Notes under the pieces: generated by a model | The model's input: only the letters and a program-made list of their open reading frames with translations | The model's database searches: none | Told to the model about the DNA's origin: nothing | In this document: positions 1-32,211 of the stretch, one piece after another | Numbering within the stretch: position 1 is the stretch's first letter | Layout of the letters: each line of letters begins with the position of its first letter | Source of the DNA: a virus | Taxonomy: Duplodnaviria; Heunggongvirae; Uroviricota; Caudoviricetes | IMG/VR virus record: IMGVR_UViG_2541047874_000005 | Strand: one strand, 5' to 3' | Length of the DNA stretch: 37,745 bases | Translations under genes and position numbers: made by a program

Positions 1-20
1 CACTGTTTATCCATACAGTT
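1..20 (+). promoter_or_regulatory. LexA (SOS) box 1 upstream of dinI-like gene
   Basis: CTGT-N8-ACAG at 3..18 (cactgtttatccatacagtt) matches the E. coli SOS box consensus. Confidence 0.65.
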
Positions 21-28
21 AAAAATAA

Positions 29-48
29 CACTGTATACAAACACAGTA
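29..48 (+). promoter_or_regulatory. LexA (SOS) box 2 upstream of dinI-like gene
   Basis: CTGT-N8-ACAG at 31..46 (ctgtatacaaacacag), 15 nt before the GAGGG RBS and ATG at 62. Confidence 0.65.
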
Positions 49-61
49 TAGAGGGACTTTT

Positions 62-310
62 ATGCGTATTGAAATCTGCATAGCCAAAGAAAAAATGACT
101 AAAATGCCAACCGGTGCTGTGGATGCGTTAAAGGAAGAATTAACCCGACGCATCAGTAAACGTTATGACGATGTAGAGGTGATCGTAAAAGCCACCAGCA
201 ACGATGGCCTTTCTGTTACGCGCACTGCCGATAAAGATTCAGCTAAAACTTTTGTTCAGGAAACTCTGAAAGATACCTGGGAGTCTGCTGACGAGTGGTT
301 TGTTCACTAA
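62..310 (+). CDS. dinI: DinI-family DNA-damage-inducible protein (RecA modulator)
   Basis: 82 aa; MRIE..IAK...LP.GA.DAL..EL.RRI and C-terminal [11 protein letters not shown] match my recollection of E. coli DinI over the full length; RBS GAGGG; preceded by two SOS boxes. Confidence 0.85.
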
Positions 311-377
311 TTAGCACGTAAAATCTGTAACGGCTGGAAATCATTCAATACTCGCACTATCGAAAGTTAACCAGCCA

Positions 378-416
378 GCCGCAGTATCCTATCATGACAA
401 GTTACTGCGGCTTTTT
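378..416 (+). terminator. Rho-independent terminator after dinI-like gene
   Basis: GCCGCAGTA (378..386) pairs with TACTGCGGC (403..411), followed by TTTTT (412..416). Confidence 0.5.
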
Positions 417-427
417 ACTTTTTATAT

Positions 428-715
428 TTAACGGATCAACATCCAGATCAGCAGACACGCCACCACCGGCACAGCAAAATCCATCAGGCTTGCTACATCC
501 CACGCGCGAGGATCAAAACCGCCCCACCACGGCATATTCATACGCTTGCCATGCCCGAACATTTCAATCCAGCGATATTCTGCCTGGGTGTGTTCACGCG
601 CAATGAAGAACGTACAACCGGCTATCGCTCCGTAAGCCCAGTTTCCGGTAAAAAGACCAACCAGAAACTGAGTGGCCACCGCACAAAGTGCATGGAACAC
701 CGGTGTTAAGTCCAT
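428..715 (-). CDS. Small integral membrane protein of unknown function, translationally coupled downstream of the tail fibre gene
   Basis: 95 aa with three hydrophobic segments; GGAGGA RBS 7 nt before ATG at 715, 2 nt after the tail fibre stop. No family recognised. Confidence 0.6.
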   Translation of the reverse strand: MDLTPVFHALCAVATQFLVGLFTGNWAYGAIAGCTFFIAREHTQAEYRWIEMFGHGKRMNMPWWGGFDPRAWDVASLMDFAVPVVACLLIWMLIR

Positions 716-717
716 AA

Positions 718-1233
718 TTATTCCTCCAGTAAATCAACACGGCGGGTAAGTGCGCTGATACTCTCTGTCAGCGCATCCACCTGGCTGACAACAGCACGCA
801 GACACCACCAGAGAAGCTCCTCTTTCCGGAAGCGATAACGGCTTCCTGCTTCGGTTGCAGGGCGAACAAGAACCCTTTCCGCCTGTCGGGTAAGCACACG
901 GGTTGTCCCGCTCAACAGCTCCCCTTCATCCGAATAAATCGCTGGCTGAACCGGAATATCTTCATACTCTTCCGGTATATCTTCGTACTGTGCCTCCTCC
1001 GCTTCCCACGAATCCAGACAAAATGCGCTGTATTTCCGCCAGTCCAGACCGTGTTTCTCCATCACGGCTATCGCGGCCTGGACTGTCGGCCCGGCGTGCA
1101 GACGCGCGTCCTCGCCCTCCTCCTCAATTCTCTGTAACCAGCGCCACACGCCCGGAAGCCGTGCTATTTCTGCAAATGCCGCGTTTTCGGCTGCCGTCGC
1201 ATCGCGCGGTGTATCCTTTAACGTCGCATCCGA
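718..1233 (-). other. Putative peptidase-S74-like autoproteolytic chaperone domain of the tail fibre (last ~171 aa)
   Basis: SDATLK begins at residue 781 (Ser codon TCG at 1233..1231 on minus strand); pattern S-D-x-x-L-K then hydrophobic helix and terminal heptad-like [17 protein letters not shown]. Confidence 0.45.
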
Positions 1234-3573
1234 CACAACGGTCGGCGAGTTGCAGAGATACACGCTCCGGAACGCTTTGTTGGGCGCACCCAGGTCGCTG
1301 GTATTGTTAACCGATGGCCGGAATGCACCGTTAATATCTGTATCCATCTGCATGAATGCAGTGCCGTCACTACGGGCTGCAATTACATAAGCGTCAGCAG
1401 AATCGTCATAAATACCCAGATTCCCGACTGTTGATACCTGGAAAGCTCCCGCCTTCAGCGTGGTGCTGATGGTCATGCGCTTCTGGGTTTCGTCATCCGA
1501 TTTAATATTCACGCCCTGCAGGTATGCCACATTCCAGCGATTTGGCGATGACCCCAGATTCATTGCCTTGTCCTGGTCGGGATGAAATGACGGCGAGACC
1601 GGACTCAATAATACAGACCAGGTTTCACTGCCATCGGTGCAATAAAGCCTTGTGCGTCCCGCCGACTGAGTATCGTTCATTGAGTAAAGGTTAATCCCGC
1701 CACCGCTCAACAAATCCACGTCAGCGCGTATTTCCAGACAATCGTGCACGGCGTTCAGTCGGTGTTTCCACTGAACGTAGCGGCCTGTGTATTCTCCGGT
1801 TCGGAACGCATCCCCGAACAAACGAAAAACAGCAGCAGAAGTGTCTGTATCCGGAGCCTCCTTTCTGACCTCAAATAACGGGCGATGCGAGCGCAGATTC
1901 TGCTCATAGGCTGCCACCTGGAAGTCTTCATTGGGTGACAGGGCAATATTTACAGCATTGGGACTCAGAAAAAGGCTGGCATGGCTGTCAGGAAACGCCA
2001 CGCCGGAGTCCACCAGATAGCCTGTGCCGTCGTAAGCCTCCACGGAAACCACAGCTTTGCTGCGTTTTGTCGCCACGCCACACGTATAAGACTTCGTGGC
2101 ATCATATTTCGTTGCAGCCGCCGTTCCATATGCTGTAGGCGTCCAGTAAGATGGATTCACCGGGGAACGGCCAGAAAAATTTGTTGCACGTGCTGCAAAG
2201 TATGCCCCCTCAAAAGAAACCACATCGGCTGTCTGACACCAGAAATCCATATCGAGCAGATACAGTTTTCCGTTATGGAGAGCCAGCCCTTCGGCTTCCT
2301 GCAAAACGGGATACCCCAGCTCTGCATTCCCCAGCATTTTCTGGCGGCCATACCTGGCACGAACGCCATCCACATTGAACTGTCTGACAACTTCGCCCGT
2401 TGACAGGTTATATACAACAATGCGGTGAGTCAGAAATACGCCTGTATAACCGTAATAAGCAAACAGATAATGACCATCGCTGGCCATCCCCTGAAATGCC
2501 TGCGACACCATTGGCTGAGTGGACAGATAAATCCGGTGTTTAAACGTCAGAGAGGCGCGATCGAAAACATAAACTGTGCGGCGATCATCCCTGTTGTAAT
2601 GAAGATGAACTGCTTCATTACTTGACTGAACAATCAACAGGCTTCCGTCTGCCGACAATGCCACCGTTATAATTTCATCCCCGGTAAAAAAGTCAGAGGT
2701 GAAAATCTCCGTACGGGTGACATCTGTCAGACTGGTGTCAGCCCCATTCCAGTTGATGATATTCACACCCTTGCCGTCAGCGGTCGGGGTATACAGCATC
2801 ACGCGACCGTCTTCACATACAGCCCCGATACTCTGGTGACCAATATCAGCGAAAACGGGAGAAAACGAAATGACCGTCGGGTTTTCGTTTTCTCCGTCAG
2901 GGTTAAATGTCGTTTCAACAATCCTTACGCCACCCGATACAGGCTGATGCAGAAACATTCTGGTTCCCTGCGGCGTATCACAGATACAGAACCCCTGGCT
3001 CATATTATCCGCGCCGTCAAAAATACCGGCGTAGTCGATATCATGAATTACTTTATGCTGGAGGGCGTCGTAATCAATGATGTCGCGGCGCAGAGAAATA
3101 TCCGCCGATCCATCAAACTCAACACCGTCAATCCTGACTGGCGTCTTAAGCTTTGATGCGGTAGCTGCGTTACCGTCCAGTTCACCAGCAACACCACCAT
3201 TGAAACTCTGCCTGCCGCTCCACGTATTTTCTGTGCTTAATAGTGGGATCTTTTCACCGCTGCTTCCTGTCTCTCTTAAACCAAGATTTTCGAGAGCAGT
3301 TTTCACTGTGCCATCCAATTTGATGTCGCCAAACGGATTCTTGCGGCTTAACAGCAGCGAACGAAGCGCGGTAAGCAGCTGGTCATGCCGCCCCTTCTCC
3401 AGGCTGGCACCGGATGCTTCCACAACACTGCAAAGCTCTTCCTGCAACATGTCAAAGTAGTCATCATCCAGATCGGTGGCAGGCGTACCGGTCTGGGGGT
3501 TGCCACGGGTAAAACCGTTCTTACCCGCGCCGAACTTATCCTTCTGCGCGGTTTTCGTGTCTATACGATGCAT
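718..3573 (-). CDS. Tail fibre / receptor-binding protein with C-terminal S74-like intramolecular chaperone domain
   Basis: 951 aa; N-terminus [26 protein letters not shown]...[12 protein letters not shown] is the conserved phage tail-fibre N-terminal anchor; sits after the gp48-like gene as in Mu; C-terminus has SDATLK (Ser/Lys dyad spacing), [17 protein letters not shown] and a terminal coiled coil. Confidence 0.85.
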
Positions 3574-5625: not shown

Positions 5626-6170
5626 GCCTCCATCGCTTTATCAGGTTTGTCGGTGTTACTGCCCTGACCGTTTTCTCTGTGACGATGCTCGTTATAGGCA
5701 AGCCGCATCGCTGACATGGTGGTGCCGCCGGAGTCGCACAGGTCTTTCACCTGTCCTGTCACTTCCAGGTCCATTTCAAAACGTGCCTTAGGCGCATTGC
5801 GAAACGTGATCGTTTTACCTGCACCGTCCACCACGATCCCCTCCCGGGTCAGCGTCACGGACTGCCCCTGATCGTCATAGACAGCCACCTCCCCCGTTTG
5901 CAGCCCTTTCAGGCGGTAGCGACGGTCCGACACCGTAACAACCACCGCATGAGAACGGTCGCCATCCGGAAACAACACCACCGCTTCCGCACCGCTGTTT
6001 GCCCTTGCGGTAAAACCGTAGGGTTCAAGATGTTCAACCCCGGCTTTGGGTTCACCGGCAATCAGGGACACATCCACGGTCTGACATTTCGTGGCGGCAC
6101 TGATGCTTTTCACTACGGCCCGCCCAATCAGGCCGAGGAGTTGTCGCTGCATGGCTTCAATCGCCCTCAT
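5622..6170 (-). CDS. Baseplate assembly protein V-like / Mu gp45-like spike
   Basis: 182 aa; size and position after the gpP-like hub gene. Confidence 0.65.
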   Translation of the reverse strand: MRAIEAMQRQLLGLIGRAVVKSISAATKCQTVDVSLIAGEPKAGVEHLEPYGFTARANSGAEAVVLFPDGDRSHAVVVTVSDRRYRLKGLQTGEVAVYDDQGQSVTLTREGIVVDGAGKTITFRNAPKARFEMDLEVTGQVKDLCDSGGTTMSAMRLAYNEHRHRENGQGSNTDKPDKAMEA

Positions 6171-26920: not shown

Positions 26921-27310
26921 TCAGGCGGCTGCACCCGCCGTTTTCTCGTACTTACTGATGGTGATCTCGACCTTCCCTTTCGGGATAACCGGTCCCCACT
27001 CCACCAGCATTCTTTTCACCTGTCTGTCGTCTTCCCACACACCCGCGTGGGTCAACGCGTCAAACAGCGCCTTGTTATAGTTGTCCAGATCGCGGATCCG
27101 GTTATCCGGAGGAAACAACACGATCTCCACTGCAGCAGGTGCCGACGTTGGTTTTGGCAGACGACGTAACTGCTCAACTATTGCTGCGCACGCCGCGCTC
27201 TGAAATTTTCGCCCCGCCGCGCTTATCAGGCTCTTACCAGCAAATGCCCCTTTGTTGGGGTGTCGCCAGTACGTGTTCACGCTGGGCGGGAAAGGCAGGA
27301 TCAGCTTCAT
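26921..27310 (-). CDS. rusA: RusA-family Holliday junction resolvase
   Basis: 129 aa; LPFPPSVNTYWRH ... DLDNYNKALFDALTHAGVWEDDRQV match the RusA fold and acidic residues. Confidence 0.85.
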   Translation of the reverse strand: MKLILPFPPSVNTYWRHPNKGAFAGKSLISAAGRKFQSAACAAIVEQLRRLPKPTSAPAAVEIVLFPPDNRIRDLDNYNKALFDALTHAGVWEDDRQVKRMLVEWGPVIPKGKVEITISKYEKTAGAAA

Positions 27311-27633
27311 ACTTTCAGGCCTCTCTCATGTAACCAGTGGGTTGCACGCAGCCTGGCGTTTTCCTCACCGGCAAGCAGTGAGCGGATAATCCCGACCGCC
27401 TCGCTGTCGTCGTCCTTCACCGCGGTATGAAGAGTGATACCCCGGGCCACGCCACGCTTTATCGTGATGACGCCTTTTTTCTCCAGTGCGCGAAGATGTT
27501 CCACCGCTGCATTCACTGAACGGTATCCCAGCATGGTTGCCACCTCCTGATTGGTTGGCGGGAAGCCACGTTCTTTCTGGTAAGAAATCAGCATATCCAG
27601 CACCTGCTGCTGGCATTGAGTTAACGTCGTCAT
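27307..27633 (-). CDS. LexA N-terminal DNA-binding-domain-only protein (no S24 peptidase domain)
   Basis: 108 aa; residues 1-70 align with the LexA winged-helix DBD (QQQVLDMLISYQKERGFPPTNQEVATMLGYRSVNAAVEHLRALEKKGVITI); only about 38 further residues, no Ala-Gly site or Ser/Lys dyad. Confidence 0.75.
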   Translation of the reverse strand: MTTLTQCQQQVLDMLISYQKERGFPPTNQEVATMLGYRSVNAAVEHLRALEKKGVITIKRGVARGITLHTAVKDDDSEAVGIIRSLLAGEENARLRATHWLHERGLKV

Positions 27634-29592: not shown

Positions 29593-29825
29593 GCTGCACC
29601 TCCGAGATGCTTCATGTTTTTTCCGGAGCGAAAGGCTATAAGCGGCATACTGACGCGGTAATTACGGCCCAGCGGTTCACAAACCACCTTCTGACATTCA
29701 CGGTCAACCAGGCTAACACGTAGAACATGCCCTGCAGGCGTGGTGTACCACTGCCCAACTGTAGGAATTGATGTTTTTTTACGCTGAAGTAAACGGCGAA
29801 TATTGAGGCTCAACAGATTAAGCAT
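29589..29825 (-). CDS. Small hypothetical protein
   Basis: 78 aa ORF with start/stop overlaps to both neighbours; basic. Confidence 0.4.
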   Translation of the reverse strand: MLNLLSLNIRRLLQRKKTSIPTVGQWYTTPAGHVLRVSLVDRECQKVVCEPLGRNYRVSMPLIAFRSGKNMKHLGGAA

Positions 29826-30654
29826 GACGATGCCCTCCGCTGATATTCAGGAGACGGTGAATATGAAAATTAGCCTTATCCGCCAGACGAATACGTTCAG
29901 CCTGCAAGTTAAGAAGGGTTTCTACCAAAACCTGATGCGCCTGCGGATCCGAAAGAGTTACCTTGCGCAGAGCACGTAGTGCAGTTGTTACATAACTGAG
30001 TTTATGTAAGTCTTCATCATTCAGACGAGTGAGGGCTGGGACAGTAGCCATGATGGCAGCCTCCTTGATCGGTGAAATACTTCCACCACCGGAAACGCCA
30101 ATTTCGCTGGTGGTGAACTGAACGGGGTTGGCGTAACCGGTGATCAAGGAAACCGGCGCATCTTTCGATGCCCCCGCCCAGCCCACCATAACTTTGATGT
30201 GAGCAAATGCGGACGATAAAAAAGACGCTGGCGCGTCATATATCGCCTTGATCAATTCCAGGACGCCAATCCCGGCACCCGCTTTATAAGGTGCCTGAAC
30301 AGTGTAACGTCCCGGAATGGCAGAATCAATGTGCTGGTGGTCCTTCACACTCAACAAAATCACGCCTGAATTTCCACAAAGGACTAAAGCACTCATGCGG
30401 GTAGTCTTTGCGAAGATAGATAACGCGCTGTGTTTCTGGCTCCCAACGAATAACATGAACATAAAGTCCTCTTCCGTCACGAAACCAGCGGTTAAGTTCC
30501 TGCACAACTCGCCCCCCACAGTCAGGTAAAGTTCTCTGTGGTTACTTACAGCCAGGTGATTTGGTAATCTGCATTCATGCCGTAACAACAGGTGTTCAGC
30601 GACACTGACCACCAGCTGTTGCGACAAACGGTTATTTGCCGTTAAACTGTTCAT
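29818..30654 (-). CDS. Hypothetical early protein
   Basis: 278 aa; between CII-like and replication genes; no Walker motif; no family recognised. Confidence 0.5.
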   Translation of the reverse strand: MNSLTANNRLSQQLVVSVAEHLLLRHECRLPNHLAVSNHRELYLTVGGELCRNLTAGFVTEEDFMFMLFVGSQKHSALSIFAKTTRMSALVLCGNSGVILLSVKDHQHIDSAIPGRYTVQAPYKAGAGIGVLELIKAIYDAPASFLSSAFAHIKVMVGWAGASKDAPVSLITGYANPVQFTTSEIGVSGGGSISPIKEAAIMATVPALTRLNDEDLHKLSYVTTALRALRKVTLSDPQAHQVLVETLLNLQAERIRLADKANFHIHRLLNISGGHRHA

Positions 30655-31536: not shown

Positions 31537-32211
31537 ATGAAAACAGTCCATGACATCCGGCGGTCTAACGCCAGAAAACTGAGAGATGGTGTTGGCGGGA
31601 ATTCTTCCTTTGCCACCATGATTGATCGCGAGCCAACCCAGACCAGCAGGTTTATGGGAGATGGTGCTACTAAAAATATCGGTGACAGCATGGCACGGCA
31701 CATCGAAAAATGTTTCGACCTGCCTGTCGGATGGCTTGATCAAGAACACCAGACAACAAACATCACAAAAAAACCTGATGTTTCAATTACTAACAAACAA
31801 ATAACGTTAGTCCCTGTCATATCATGGGTACAGGCCGGAGCATGGAAAGAAGTTGGCTATTCTGAGGTTGATTTGAGCACAGCAGAAACTTATCCCTGCC
31901 CTGTACCCTGTGGCGAAATGACTTATATCTTGCGGGTGATTGGTGATTCAATGATTGATGAGTACCGCCCGGGAGACATGATTTTTGTTGATCCCGAAGT
32001 CCCTGCCTGCCACGGTGACGACGTTATTGCATTGATGCACGATACAGGCGAAACCACCTTCAAGCGATTGATAGAAGATGGAACACAGCGTTATCTCAAA
32101 GCATTAAACCCAAACTGGCCTGAGCCTTACATTAAGATTAACGGTAATTGCTCTATAATTGGTACAGTAATTTTCTCAGGAAAACCAAGAAGATACAAAA
32201 TAAAGGCCTAA
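31537..32211 (+). CDS. cI: CI-type prophage repressor with S24 (LexA-like) autopeptidase domain
   Basis: 224 aa; C-terminal VIGDSM...GD...K and a QAG cleavage-site-like motif; N-terminal HTH-like region; divergent from cro. Confidence 0.85.
   Translation: MKTVHDIRRSNARKLRDGVGGNSSFATMIDREPTQTSRFMGDGATKNIGDSMARHIEKCFDLPVGWLDQEHQTTNITKKPDVSITNKQITLVPVISWVQAGAWKEVGYSEVDLSTAETYPCPVPCGEMTYILRVIGDSMIDEYRPGDMIFVDPEVPACHGDDVIALMHDTGETTFKRLIEDGTQRYLKALNPNWPEPYIKINGNCSIIGTVIFSGKPRRYKIKA

Follow-up and report, generated by a model that had tools for sequence, protein, structure and literature searches.

The stretch of DNA analysed here, referred to below as the window, is 37,745 bp long and is essentially a whole prophage of a dusA-integrated, SfV/e14-like myovirus. 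Its modules include baseplate, sheath, HK97-type head, lysis, a Q-like antiterminator, replication, and immunity, as assigned from the annotation of a related prophage in Escherichia coli MIN14 together with the map of open reading frames (ORFs). A 99.2%-identical stretch from MIN14 (L001) shows the DNA that lies upstream of the window edge. In L001, a tyrosine integrase gene adjoins dusA and its coding sequence ends at position 6000, equivalent to window position 0; the window starts one base past the integrase stop, and the sequence across the edge reads ...CTC-TTGACA-CTGT.... Beside the integrase, at the left end of the window, is a dinI-like gene preceded by two motifs of the form CTGT-N8-ACAG and followed by a hairpin and by genes on the opposite strand. 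The features that are relevant to the analysis are listed below, with a heterology index (HI) given for the two operators.

-3 to 2, plus strand: -35 hexamer TTGACA (CA at 1 to 2), seen in L001 at 5997-6002 by promoter scan
1 to 20, unstranded: putative LexA operator 1, CACTGTTTATCCATACAGTT, core 3-18, exact motif, HI 5.10
20 to 25, plus strand: alternative -10 hexamer TAAAAA with a 17-bp spacer, from the promoter scan on L001
21 to 26, plus strand: predicted -10 hexamer AAAAAT with an 18-bp spacer, from the promoter scan on L001
29 to 48, unstranded: putative LexA operator 2, CACTGTATACAAACACAGTA, core 31-46, exact motif, HI 4.64
51 to 56, plus strand: Shine-Dalgarno sequence GAGGGA, 5 nt before the ATG, from direct reading of the sequence
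62 to 310 (stop included), plus strand: dinI-like coding sequence, 82 aa, from Pfam, PHROG, PDB and alignment
311 to 376, plus strand: 3′ untranslated region (UTR) with a weak internal stem, 332-337 with 371-376, from folding
377 to 424, plus strand: predicted intrinsic terminator, from RNA folding
428 to 715, minus strand: 95-aa ORF of PHROG 1443, unknown function, from the ORF map and PHROG
718 to 3573, minus strand: tail fibre, 951 aa, with a Peptidase_S74 chaperone domain, from the ORF map and Pfam
31537 to 32211, plus strand: CI-type repressor (Peptidase_S24, E=1.5e-26; PHROG 4, transcriptional repressor)

The initial annotation placed two CTGT-N8-ACAG boxes in front of the gene, and both are there as perfect motifs, at window 3-18 (CTGTTTATCCATACAG) and 31-46 (CTGTATACAAACACAG), with starts 28 bp apart. 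They lie within a leader at window 1-61 that reads CACTGTTTATCCATACAGTTAAAAATAACACTGTATACAAACACAGTATAGAGGGACTTTT and is followed by the ATG at 62. This motif occurs three times in the 37,745-bp window, compared with an expectation of 0.53 from dinucleotide-preserving shuffles, and Poisson arithmetic from the rate of 0.53 per window puts the chance of finding two motifs within one 46-bp stretch at ~2e-7. The third occurrence, at 30536-30551, was considered as a LexA site and is taken as a chance match, given its HI of 16.3 and its location inside an ORF of the Ash family.

Scoring of the boxes with a position matrix, which the initial annotation had proposed as a check, bore out their quality. 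The HI matrix uses the Berg-von Hippel/Lewis formula with 29 E. coli LexA sites known from the literature, and its consensus is the published TACTGTATATATATACAGTA. On this scale, the absolute values of which are approximate because the set of sites is an uncurated one, the 20-mer at 29-48 (box 2) scores 4.64 and is the best in the window, and the 20-mer at 1-20 (box 1) scores 5.10, comparable to the lexA and uvrA operators. Leave-one-out values from the same matrix are 4.8 for recA, 4.5 for sulA, and 5.9 for lexA, so that both boxes have scores in the range of these operators. The next-best 20-mer in the window has an HI of 11.67, and the window median is 36.4. As judged from these scores, the promoter of the dinI-like gene is the sole credible candidate for a LexA target in the 37.7-kb prophage.

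The positions of the boxes relative to the predicted core promoter are consistent with such a role. In the promoter scan of L001, TTGACA and AAAAAT separated by 18 bp give 10/12 matches to the consensus; with 4/6 matches the -10 hexamer is weak, and the prediction places the start site near window 33. The first four bases of the -35 hexamer lie outside the window, and the TGA that ends the upstream integrase gene falls within the hexamer. A consensus promoter scan of the window alone found no promoter for the dinI-like gene, the window edge cutting through it, and a promoter at the same place has been annotated by the depositors of phage mEp460. Box 1 fills the spacer between the -35 and -10 hexamers and box 2 begins three bases past the -10, which places both over the core promoter. 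The 20-mer of operator 2 lies over the predicted transcription start, and 13 nt separate its end from the ATG. LexA bound at either box would exclude RNA polymerase.

The product of the gene was described in the initial annotation as a clear DinI homologue, an assignment with which several lines of evidence agree. The 82-aa protein matches the Pfam DinI family, PF06183, over profile positions 1-63 of 63 (E=1.1e-19; 70.9 bits, with a cut-off of 24.2), and PHROG 189, ‘RecA filament binding protein DinI’ (E=5.7e-31). It also matches the DinI structures 1GHH/7YWA in the PDB (E=4e-13) and can be aligned over its full length with E. coli DinI, to which it is 46% identical. It consists of a single domain with an acidic C-terminal helix, WESADEWF, at residues 73-80, as is typical of the family. 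The score against the NCBIfam DinI equivalog NF007893 is 73 bits, below the cut-off of 111, and because of this the protein is treated as a DinI paralogue, not an orthologue, and is called DinI-like.

Cryo-EM of RecA with DinI has shown DinI sitting in the groove of the filament, with one DinI for every two RecA (PMC9926225). In that structure F203 of RecA, in loop L2, inserts into a pocket of DinI formed by L13, L21, W71, W77, and F78, and a basic patch of RecA (K232/R243/K245) is faced by E24, E69, and D76 of DinI; the same elements of RecA are used by LexA, UmuD, and lambda CI (PMC9926225). In alignment A1, which includes E. coli DinI, the pocket corresponds to M15/L23/W73/W79/F80 of the 82-aa protein and the acidic residues to E26/D71/E78. 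Across the eight RecA-contact positions five are identical and three are conservative replacements, and W73, E74, A76, D77, W79, and F80 are invariant throughout the alignment. Because the RecA-contact residues are conserved, we infer that the 82-aa protein is suited to binding RecA filaments in the manner of DinI.

Downstream of the coding sequence, the transcript is predicted to be short. The hairpin has a 10-bp GC-rich stem, AGCCGCAGUA/UACUGCGGCU (377-386 with 403-412), and a 16-nt loop, and is followed by UUUUACUUUUU. RNA folding of 300-430 gives -29.4 kcal/mol (z=-2.94), and none of 200 shuffles folds as well. A consensus terminator scan with a loop limit of 8 nt missed the hairpin at 377-412. 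The element at 377-424 is predicted to be the intrinsic terminator of a monocistronic dinI-like transcript; the sole plus-strand ORF downstream, at 394-606, starts inside the hairpin and is antisense to the 95-aa ORF. On one point the initial annotation has to be corrected: it described the gene as divergent from the tail genes, whereas the dinI-like gene is on the plus strand and runs rightward, and the ORFs at 428-715 and 718-3573 are on the minus strand and run leftward. The dinI-like gene and the tail-fibre unit are therefore convergent, with the hairpin at 377-412 between them.

Sequences related to this locus are common in E. coli and its phages. At least part of a 720-bp query finds a match in 3976 of 5426 complete E. 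coli genomes (~73%), with a median of two and up to nine matching places per genome. Part or all of the first 720 bp is matched by 178 phage records, and many of these matches run as far as window position 384. In 56 IMG/VR loci whose sequence extends upstream of the gene, representing 20 sequence variants and two unrelated upstream contexts, no variation is seen in the CTGT/ACAG cores. Conservation of the two box 20-mers is 0.98 and 0.93, compared with 0.916 for synonymous third positions (39 distinct close relatives).

Conservation of the operators also extends to more distant loci. In species-representative genomes, a LexA box with an HI below 10 is present upstream of the DinI homologue at 73 of 80 loci; the seven exceptions comprise ORFs with no start codon at the position inferred for their start, together with one ORF that is truncated. 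Most of the closer homologues, which are of the phage type (81-82 aa, 56-99% identity), have two boxes, ~40 and ~14 nt from the ATG. Most of those that are more distant, a group that takes in the nearest relatives of E. coli DinI, have one box, typically ~19 nt from the ATG. Two boxes are kept in other genera at 56-72% protein identity. Spacing in the two-box relatives varies from 24 to 29 bp, so they are not strictly phased, and the distance from box 2 to the ATG is 13-15 nt in phage-type relatives. When printed in register, loci from E. coli, Shigella, Pantoea, Trabulsiella, Mixta, and Erwinia have the same succession of TTGACA, box 1, -10, and box 2, with box 1 at the same position in the Pantoea, Trabulsiella, Mixta, and Erwinia relatives. 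An element resembling TAAAAAT/TAAATAAT between the two boxes is conserved in distant loci, and the relatives have a purine-rich element equivalent to the Shine-Dalgarno sequence. DNA upstream of the -35 hexamer is unrelated between these six groups of loci and, because the layout is shared nonetheless, the unit of promoter, operators, and gene appears to move as a cassette. The neighbours of the relatives are those of prophage ends, with convergent tail-fibre-assembly genes in four loci and a dusA-integrase-dinI arrangement in Rosenbergiella. Taken from the quality of the operators, their position over the core promoter, and their conservation across genera, the prediction that the dinI-like gene is repressed by LexA is well supported.

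Several known systems resemble this locus, and genes of its kind have been described before. The chromosomal DinI protein of E. coli (81 aa), a modulator of RecA filaments under LexA regulation, belongs to the same fold family, has the C-terminal WESAD(D/E)WF helix, and has a LexA box near its ATG. In contrast to it, the window gene is on a prophage, between integrase and tail-fibre genes, and has two operators, ~41 and 13 nt from the ATG; the window protein has gained two residues near its N-terminus and lacks two in its central part. Two or more LexA operators at a promoter are likewise found for lexA, recN, and colicin genes, and in Salmonella there are two boxes at lexA and three at recN (PMC8072944). 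Binding of LexA to dinI of Klebsiella has been detected by ChIP (PMC10907235). Among phages, mEp460, SKA5, PhiR55_1, cdtI, CP-1639, VT1-Sakai (H0001), and many Stx phages encode proteins that are 92.7-100% identical to the window protein and are annotated as DinI or DinI-like, and mEp460 has the same order of int, dinI, and tail fibre. LexA operators were not seen annotated in the deposited phage records examined.

The homologues in Salmonella prophages provide the closest experimental comparison. That LexA controls dinI homologues of prophages was demonstrated for Salmonella in 2011 (PMC3121763), and the dinI homologues of Gifsy-1, -2, and -3 are, as here, prophage-borne members of the DinI family preceded by a LexA box. 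The Gifsy-2 homologue is 42.5% identical to the window protein, and a tagged version of it builds up in response to mitomycin C (Lemire et al. 2011, PMC3121763). Nalidixic acid induces the Gifsy-1, -2, and -3 genes 23-, 14-, and 4.6-fold, and each has one LexA box, 19 nt from the ATG (PMC8072944). The setting of the Gifsy genes differs: they are ~1.3 kb downstream of replication genes and head an operon that also contains an antirepressor gene and irsA, and the repressors of these prophages do not undergo cleavage, antirepressors being used instead (PMC3121763). The window gene, in contrast, is monocistronic and at the integrase end, in a prophage whose repressor is of the self-cleaving S24 type. 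No description was found, in the literature and records searched, of the conserved two-operator architecture of the phage-type clade or of the direct joining of that architecture to a perfect -35. Both are matters of detail and not a new kind of system; what they add is that the phage-type clade usually has a conserved two-operator promoter fused to a perfect -35, and that the cassette moves as a unit.

The repressor of the prophage is important for how the DinI-like protein might act. In addition to its Peptidase_S24 domain, the translation of 31537-32211 has a VQAG/AW cleavage site, the serine of a GDSM motif, and the lysine of an FKRL motif, and on account of these motifs it is assigned to the self-cleaving CI/LexA type, with cleavage presumed to depend on RecA*. 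Competition in the groove of RecA is mechanistically plausible because the prophage's own repressor must use the same groove for its cleavage.

We think it likely that the locus is an SOS-inducible ‘moron’ cassette, complete in itself and located at the end of the prophage nearest the integrase, that damps slow RecA*-dependent cleavage. Its parts are a strong -35, two LexA operators, a weak -10, a Shine-Dalgarno sequence, an 82-aa DinI paralogue, and a terminator. What was observed is the sequence anatomy and its conservation; that LexA and RecA are bound, and in which direction the protein acts, is inferred from these. In an undamaged lysogen, host LexA dimers would occupy both operators, over the promoter spacer and the start site, and RNA polymerase would be excluded. 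Autocleavage of LexA triggered by RecA* would then open the promoter. SOS promoters with multiple LexA operators are more tightly repressed and are induced later, and two good operators would probably give a later and sharper opening than at genes with a single box. Judging from the conserved residues, the product would probably enter the groove of the RecA-ssDNA filament by way of its DinI-like hydrophobic pocket and acidic patch. Once bound, it would make filaments more stable and would be a competitor of LexA, UmuD, and CI-type repressors for the L2-loop/basic-patch site. The likeliest net effect would be a dose-dependent damping or delay of slow cleavages, such as those of CI and UmuD, and doses may add up in E. 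coli genomes that have a median of two, and up to nine, matching places.

The initial annotation had suggested that a prophage-borne DinI could dampen RecA-mediated cleavage of CI or LexA and so tune induction. The finding of a self-cleaving S24 repressor and the retention of the RecA-contact residues make the first part of this suggestion plausible, and results from Salmonella, with distant homologues in prophages that use antirepressors, weigh against an effect on induction. Non-polar deletion of the Gifsy-1 and Gifsy-3 dinI homologues, the only genetic test of prophage dinI homologues on induction that was found in the literature, caused no significant change in its level or rate (PMC3121763). 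A literature search for functional work on DinI-like proteins of E. coli prophages gave just annotations, association studies, and the Gifsy work. DinI has been described mainly as a filament stabiliser (PMC9926225), and the effect of the 82-aa protein could be neutral or even pro-induction.

A different reading of the same protein is that it promotes induction: by stabilising RecA* it would prolong the signal and provide a positive feedback that commits the prophage to CI cleavage and lysis. DinI stabilises and lengthens RecA filaments, assists in their formation, and is the first among the sequential groove binders of the filament (PMC9926225), and the contact residues required for stabilisation are conserved in the 82-aa protein. 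Two operators would, moreover, limit expression to strong or sustained SOS, when commitment is decided. Set against this, DinI occupies the L2-loop/basic-patch site that lambda CI needs, at one DinI for every two RecA, and steric competition would be expected; inhibition of the coprotease by DinI at high concentration has been reported, according to the passages of PMC10575684 and PMC13192584 that cite it. The Gifsy-1 and Gifsy-3 deletions altered induction in neither direction (PMC3121763). We consider a pro-induction role unlikely.

It has also to be asked whether the RNA is the important product, in the form of a small RNA (sRNA) derived from the 3′ UTR of the dinI mRNA. DinR of Klebsiella provides the precedent for an sRNA of this type, although its seed region is reported to be specific to Klebsiella (PMC10907235). 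The 3′ UTR of the window gene is ~100 nt long and structured, ends in the terminator hairpin, and travels with the gene, many phage matches reaching window 384. Its sequence argues otherwise: conservation of 311-376 is 0.903, against 0.916 at synonymous positions, a weak test given the shallow divergence that was sampled, and the hairpin region is poorly conserved (0.625). An Rfam search with the 3′ UTR gave no family match at E<=1. A function as an RNA of the DinR type is very improbable on this evidence.

Coliphage 186 offers a further comparison. Its LexA-controlled Tum protein (146 aa) has a DinI-like C-terminal half (PMC3121763), and the window protein is without the antirepressor half. 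By analogy with Tum, or with the dinI-gfoA/gftA-irsA type of module in Gifsy, the dinI-like gene might represent the DinI portion of an antirepressor module under LexA control. Of the 151 positions in the PHROG 189 profile, the window protein covers just 71-149, so longer proteins are probably included in the same PHROG. The anatomy of the locus contradicts such a reading, which we rejected as extremely unlikely: the 82-aa protein has neither an N-terminal extension nor a fused antirepressor domain; the terminator hairpin at 377-424 is followed by opposite-strand genes, with no cotranscribed ORF downstream; the S24 autocleavage apparatus of the repressor at 31537-32211 is complete, so that an antirepressor is not needed; and there is no other LexA site in the prophage. 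That the boxes are chance or decayed matches in front of an unregulated passenger gene, for which the weak -10 hexamer might speak, is almost certainly wrong and was discarded on the comparative data, given a 46-bp stretch with two perfect motifs (expectation for all 37.7 kb of the window, 0.53), HI scores equal to those of proven operators, cores that are invariant in close relatives, and the retention of both boxes at 56-72% protein identity in other genera.

Elsewhere in the same prophage, a 108-aa protein encoded at 27307-27633 on the minus strand has a LexA DNA-binding domain without a cleavage domain (Pfam LexA_DNA_bind, E=3e-19) and is 43% identical to residues 1-86 of LexA. Its recognition helix reads RSVNAAVEHL, compared with RSPNAAEEHL in LexA, and S39, N41, A42, and E45 are kept. 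The gene is present in 61 phage records, including SfV, SfII, SfIV, mEp460, cdtI, and Stx2c phages, and the dinI-like gene is also found in at least 15 of the 40 of these records that were listed. A literature search on phage proteins with a LexA DNA-binding domain found no relevant study. Should the 108-aa protein recognise LexA boxes, both operators of the dinI-like gene would have a second ligand, one that cannot be cleaved. It is conceivable, though we regard it as rather improbable, that the two-operator dinI-like cassette forms one arm of a circuit through which the phage acts on the SOS response of its host, with this uncleavable LexA mimic as its partner. Were the mimic to bind CTGT-N8-ACAG, it could re-repress the host SOS regulon and the dinI-like gene after induction, despite the destruction of LexA. 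The DinI-like protein would meanwhile be on RecA filaments, and the phage would control both the sensor of SOS (RecA*) and its output (the LexA boxes).

For the SOS-inducible cassette itself, the wider significance lies in what prophage genes of this type could do in lysogens. Through their action on RecA, prophage genes induced by SOS could determine the readiness of a lysogen for induction, and in Stx phages they could affect the release of toxin under antibiotics. They could also affect the amount of SOS mutagenesis. With most E. coli genomes containing from one to nine matching places, it may be the summed dose of these genes that matters.

Immediately to the left of the window, the related locus in E. 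coli MIN14 (L001, 99.2% identical) reveals the integration context of the dinI-like gene. The features discussed here are the following.

L001 4903-6000: tyrosine integrase gene abutting dusA, left of the window
428-715, minus strand: 95-aa hydrophobic ORF, PHROG 1443 (unknown function), E=1.5e-56
718-3573, minus strand: 951-aa tail fibre; residues 781-843 form a C-terminal Peptidase_S74 intramolecular-chaperone domain
27307-27633, minus strand: 108-aa LexA DNA-binding-domain protein, Pfam PF01726, E=3e-19
30536-30551: third perfect CTGT-N8-ACAG motif, inside an Ash-family ORF (29818-30654, minus strand)

The first base of the window lies exactly one base past the integrase stop codon, and this TGA forms part of the −35 hexamer from which the dinI-like gene would be transcribed. 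At its far end, the MIN14 prophage is bordered by a fragment of dusA, and the order dusA, integrase, dinI is likewise present in Rosenbergiella.

On the other side, the 95-aa ORF is convergent with dinI and immediately downstream of the tail-fibre gene. Searches of Pfam and NCBIfam gave no match for it, and its naming in RefSeq is inconsistent: it is a ‘hypothetical protein’ in MIN14, and the features under its match in other records are annotated as ‘capsid protein’ or as a ‘nucleocapsid protein’ pseudogene. It may be a membrane-protein moron. The tail-fibre coding sequence is 2856 bp in the window versus 2286 bp in the MIN14 locus, which is otherwise 99% identical, and the receptor-binding module has therefore been exchanged.

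Enterobacterial-type DinI-like genes with LexA boxes were also found in assemblies that carry non-enterobacterial taxon labels; these assemblies, listed next, are probably contaminated or mis-binned.

L088: record titled Chryseobacterium sp. 18061
L091: Saccharibacteria MAG
L092: Wohlfahrtiimonas MAG
L127: Vagococcus sp.

Within the window, the third motif is probably a chance match, because its LexA score is poor (heterology index 16.3, lower values being better).

The 108-aa protein, whose gene is flanked by those for RusA and a Dam-like methylase, has 43% identity to LexA residues 1-86 and lacks the S24 cleavage domain. The LexA recognition helix, RSPNAAEEHL, is conserved in it as RSVNAAVEHL. 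A literature search on this phage protein found no study. It is carried by 61 phage records, among them SfV, SfII, SfIV, mEp460, cdtI, and Stx2c phages, many of which also have the dinI-like gene. The protein might bind LexA boxes while being itself uncleavable.
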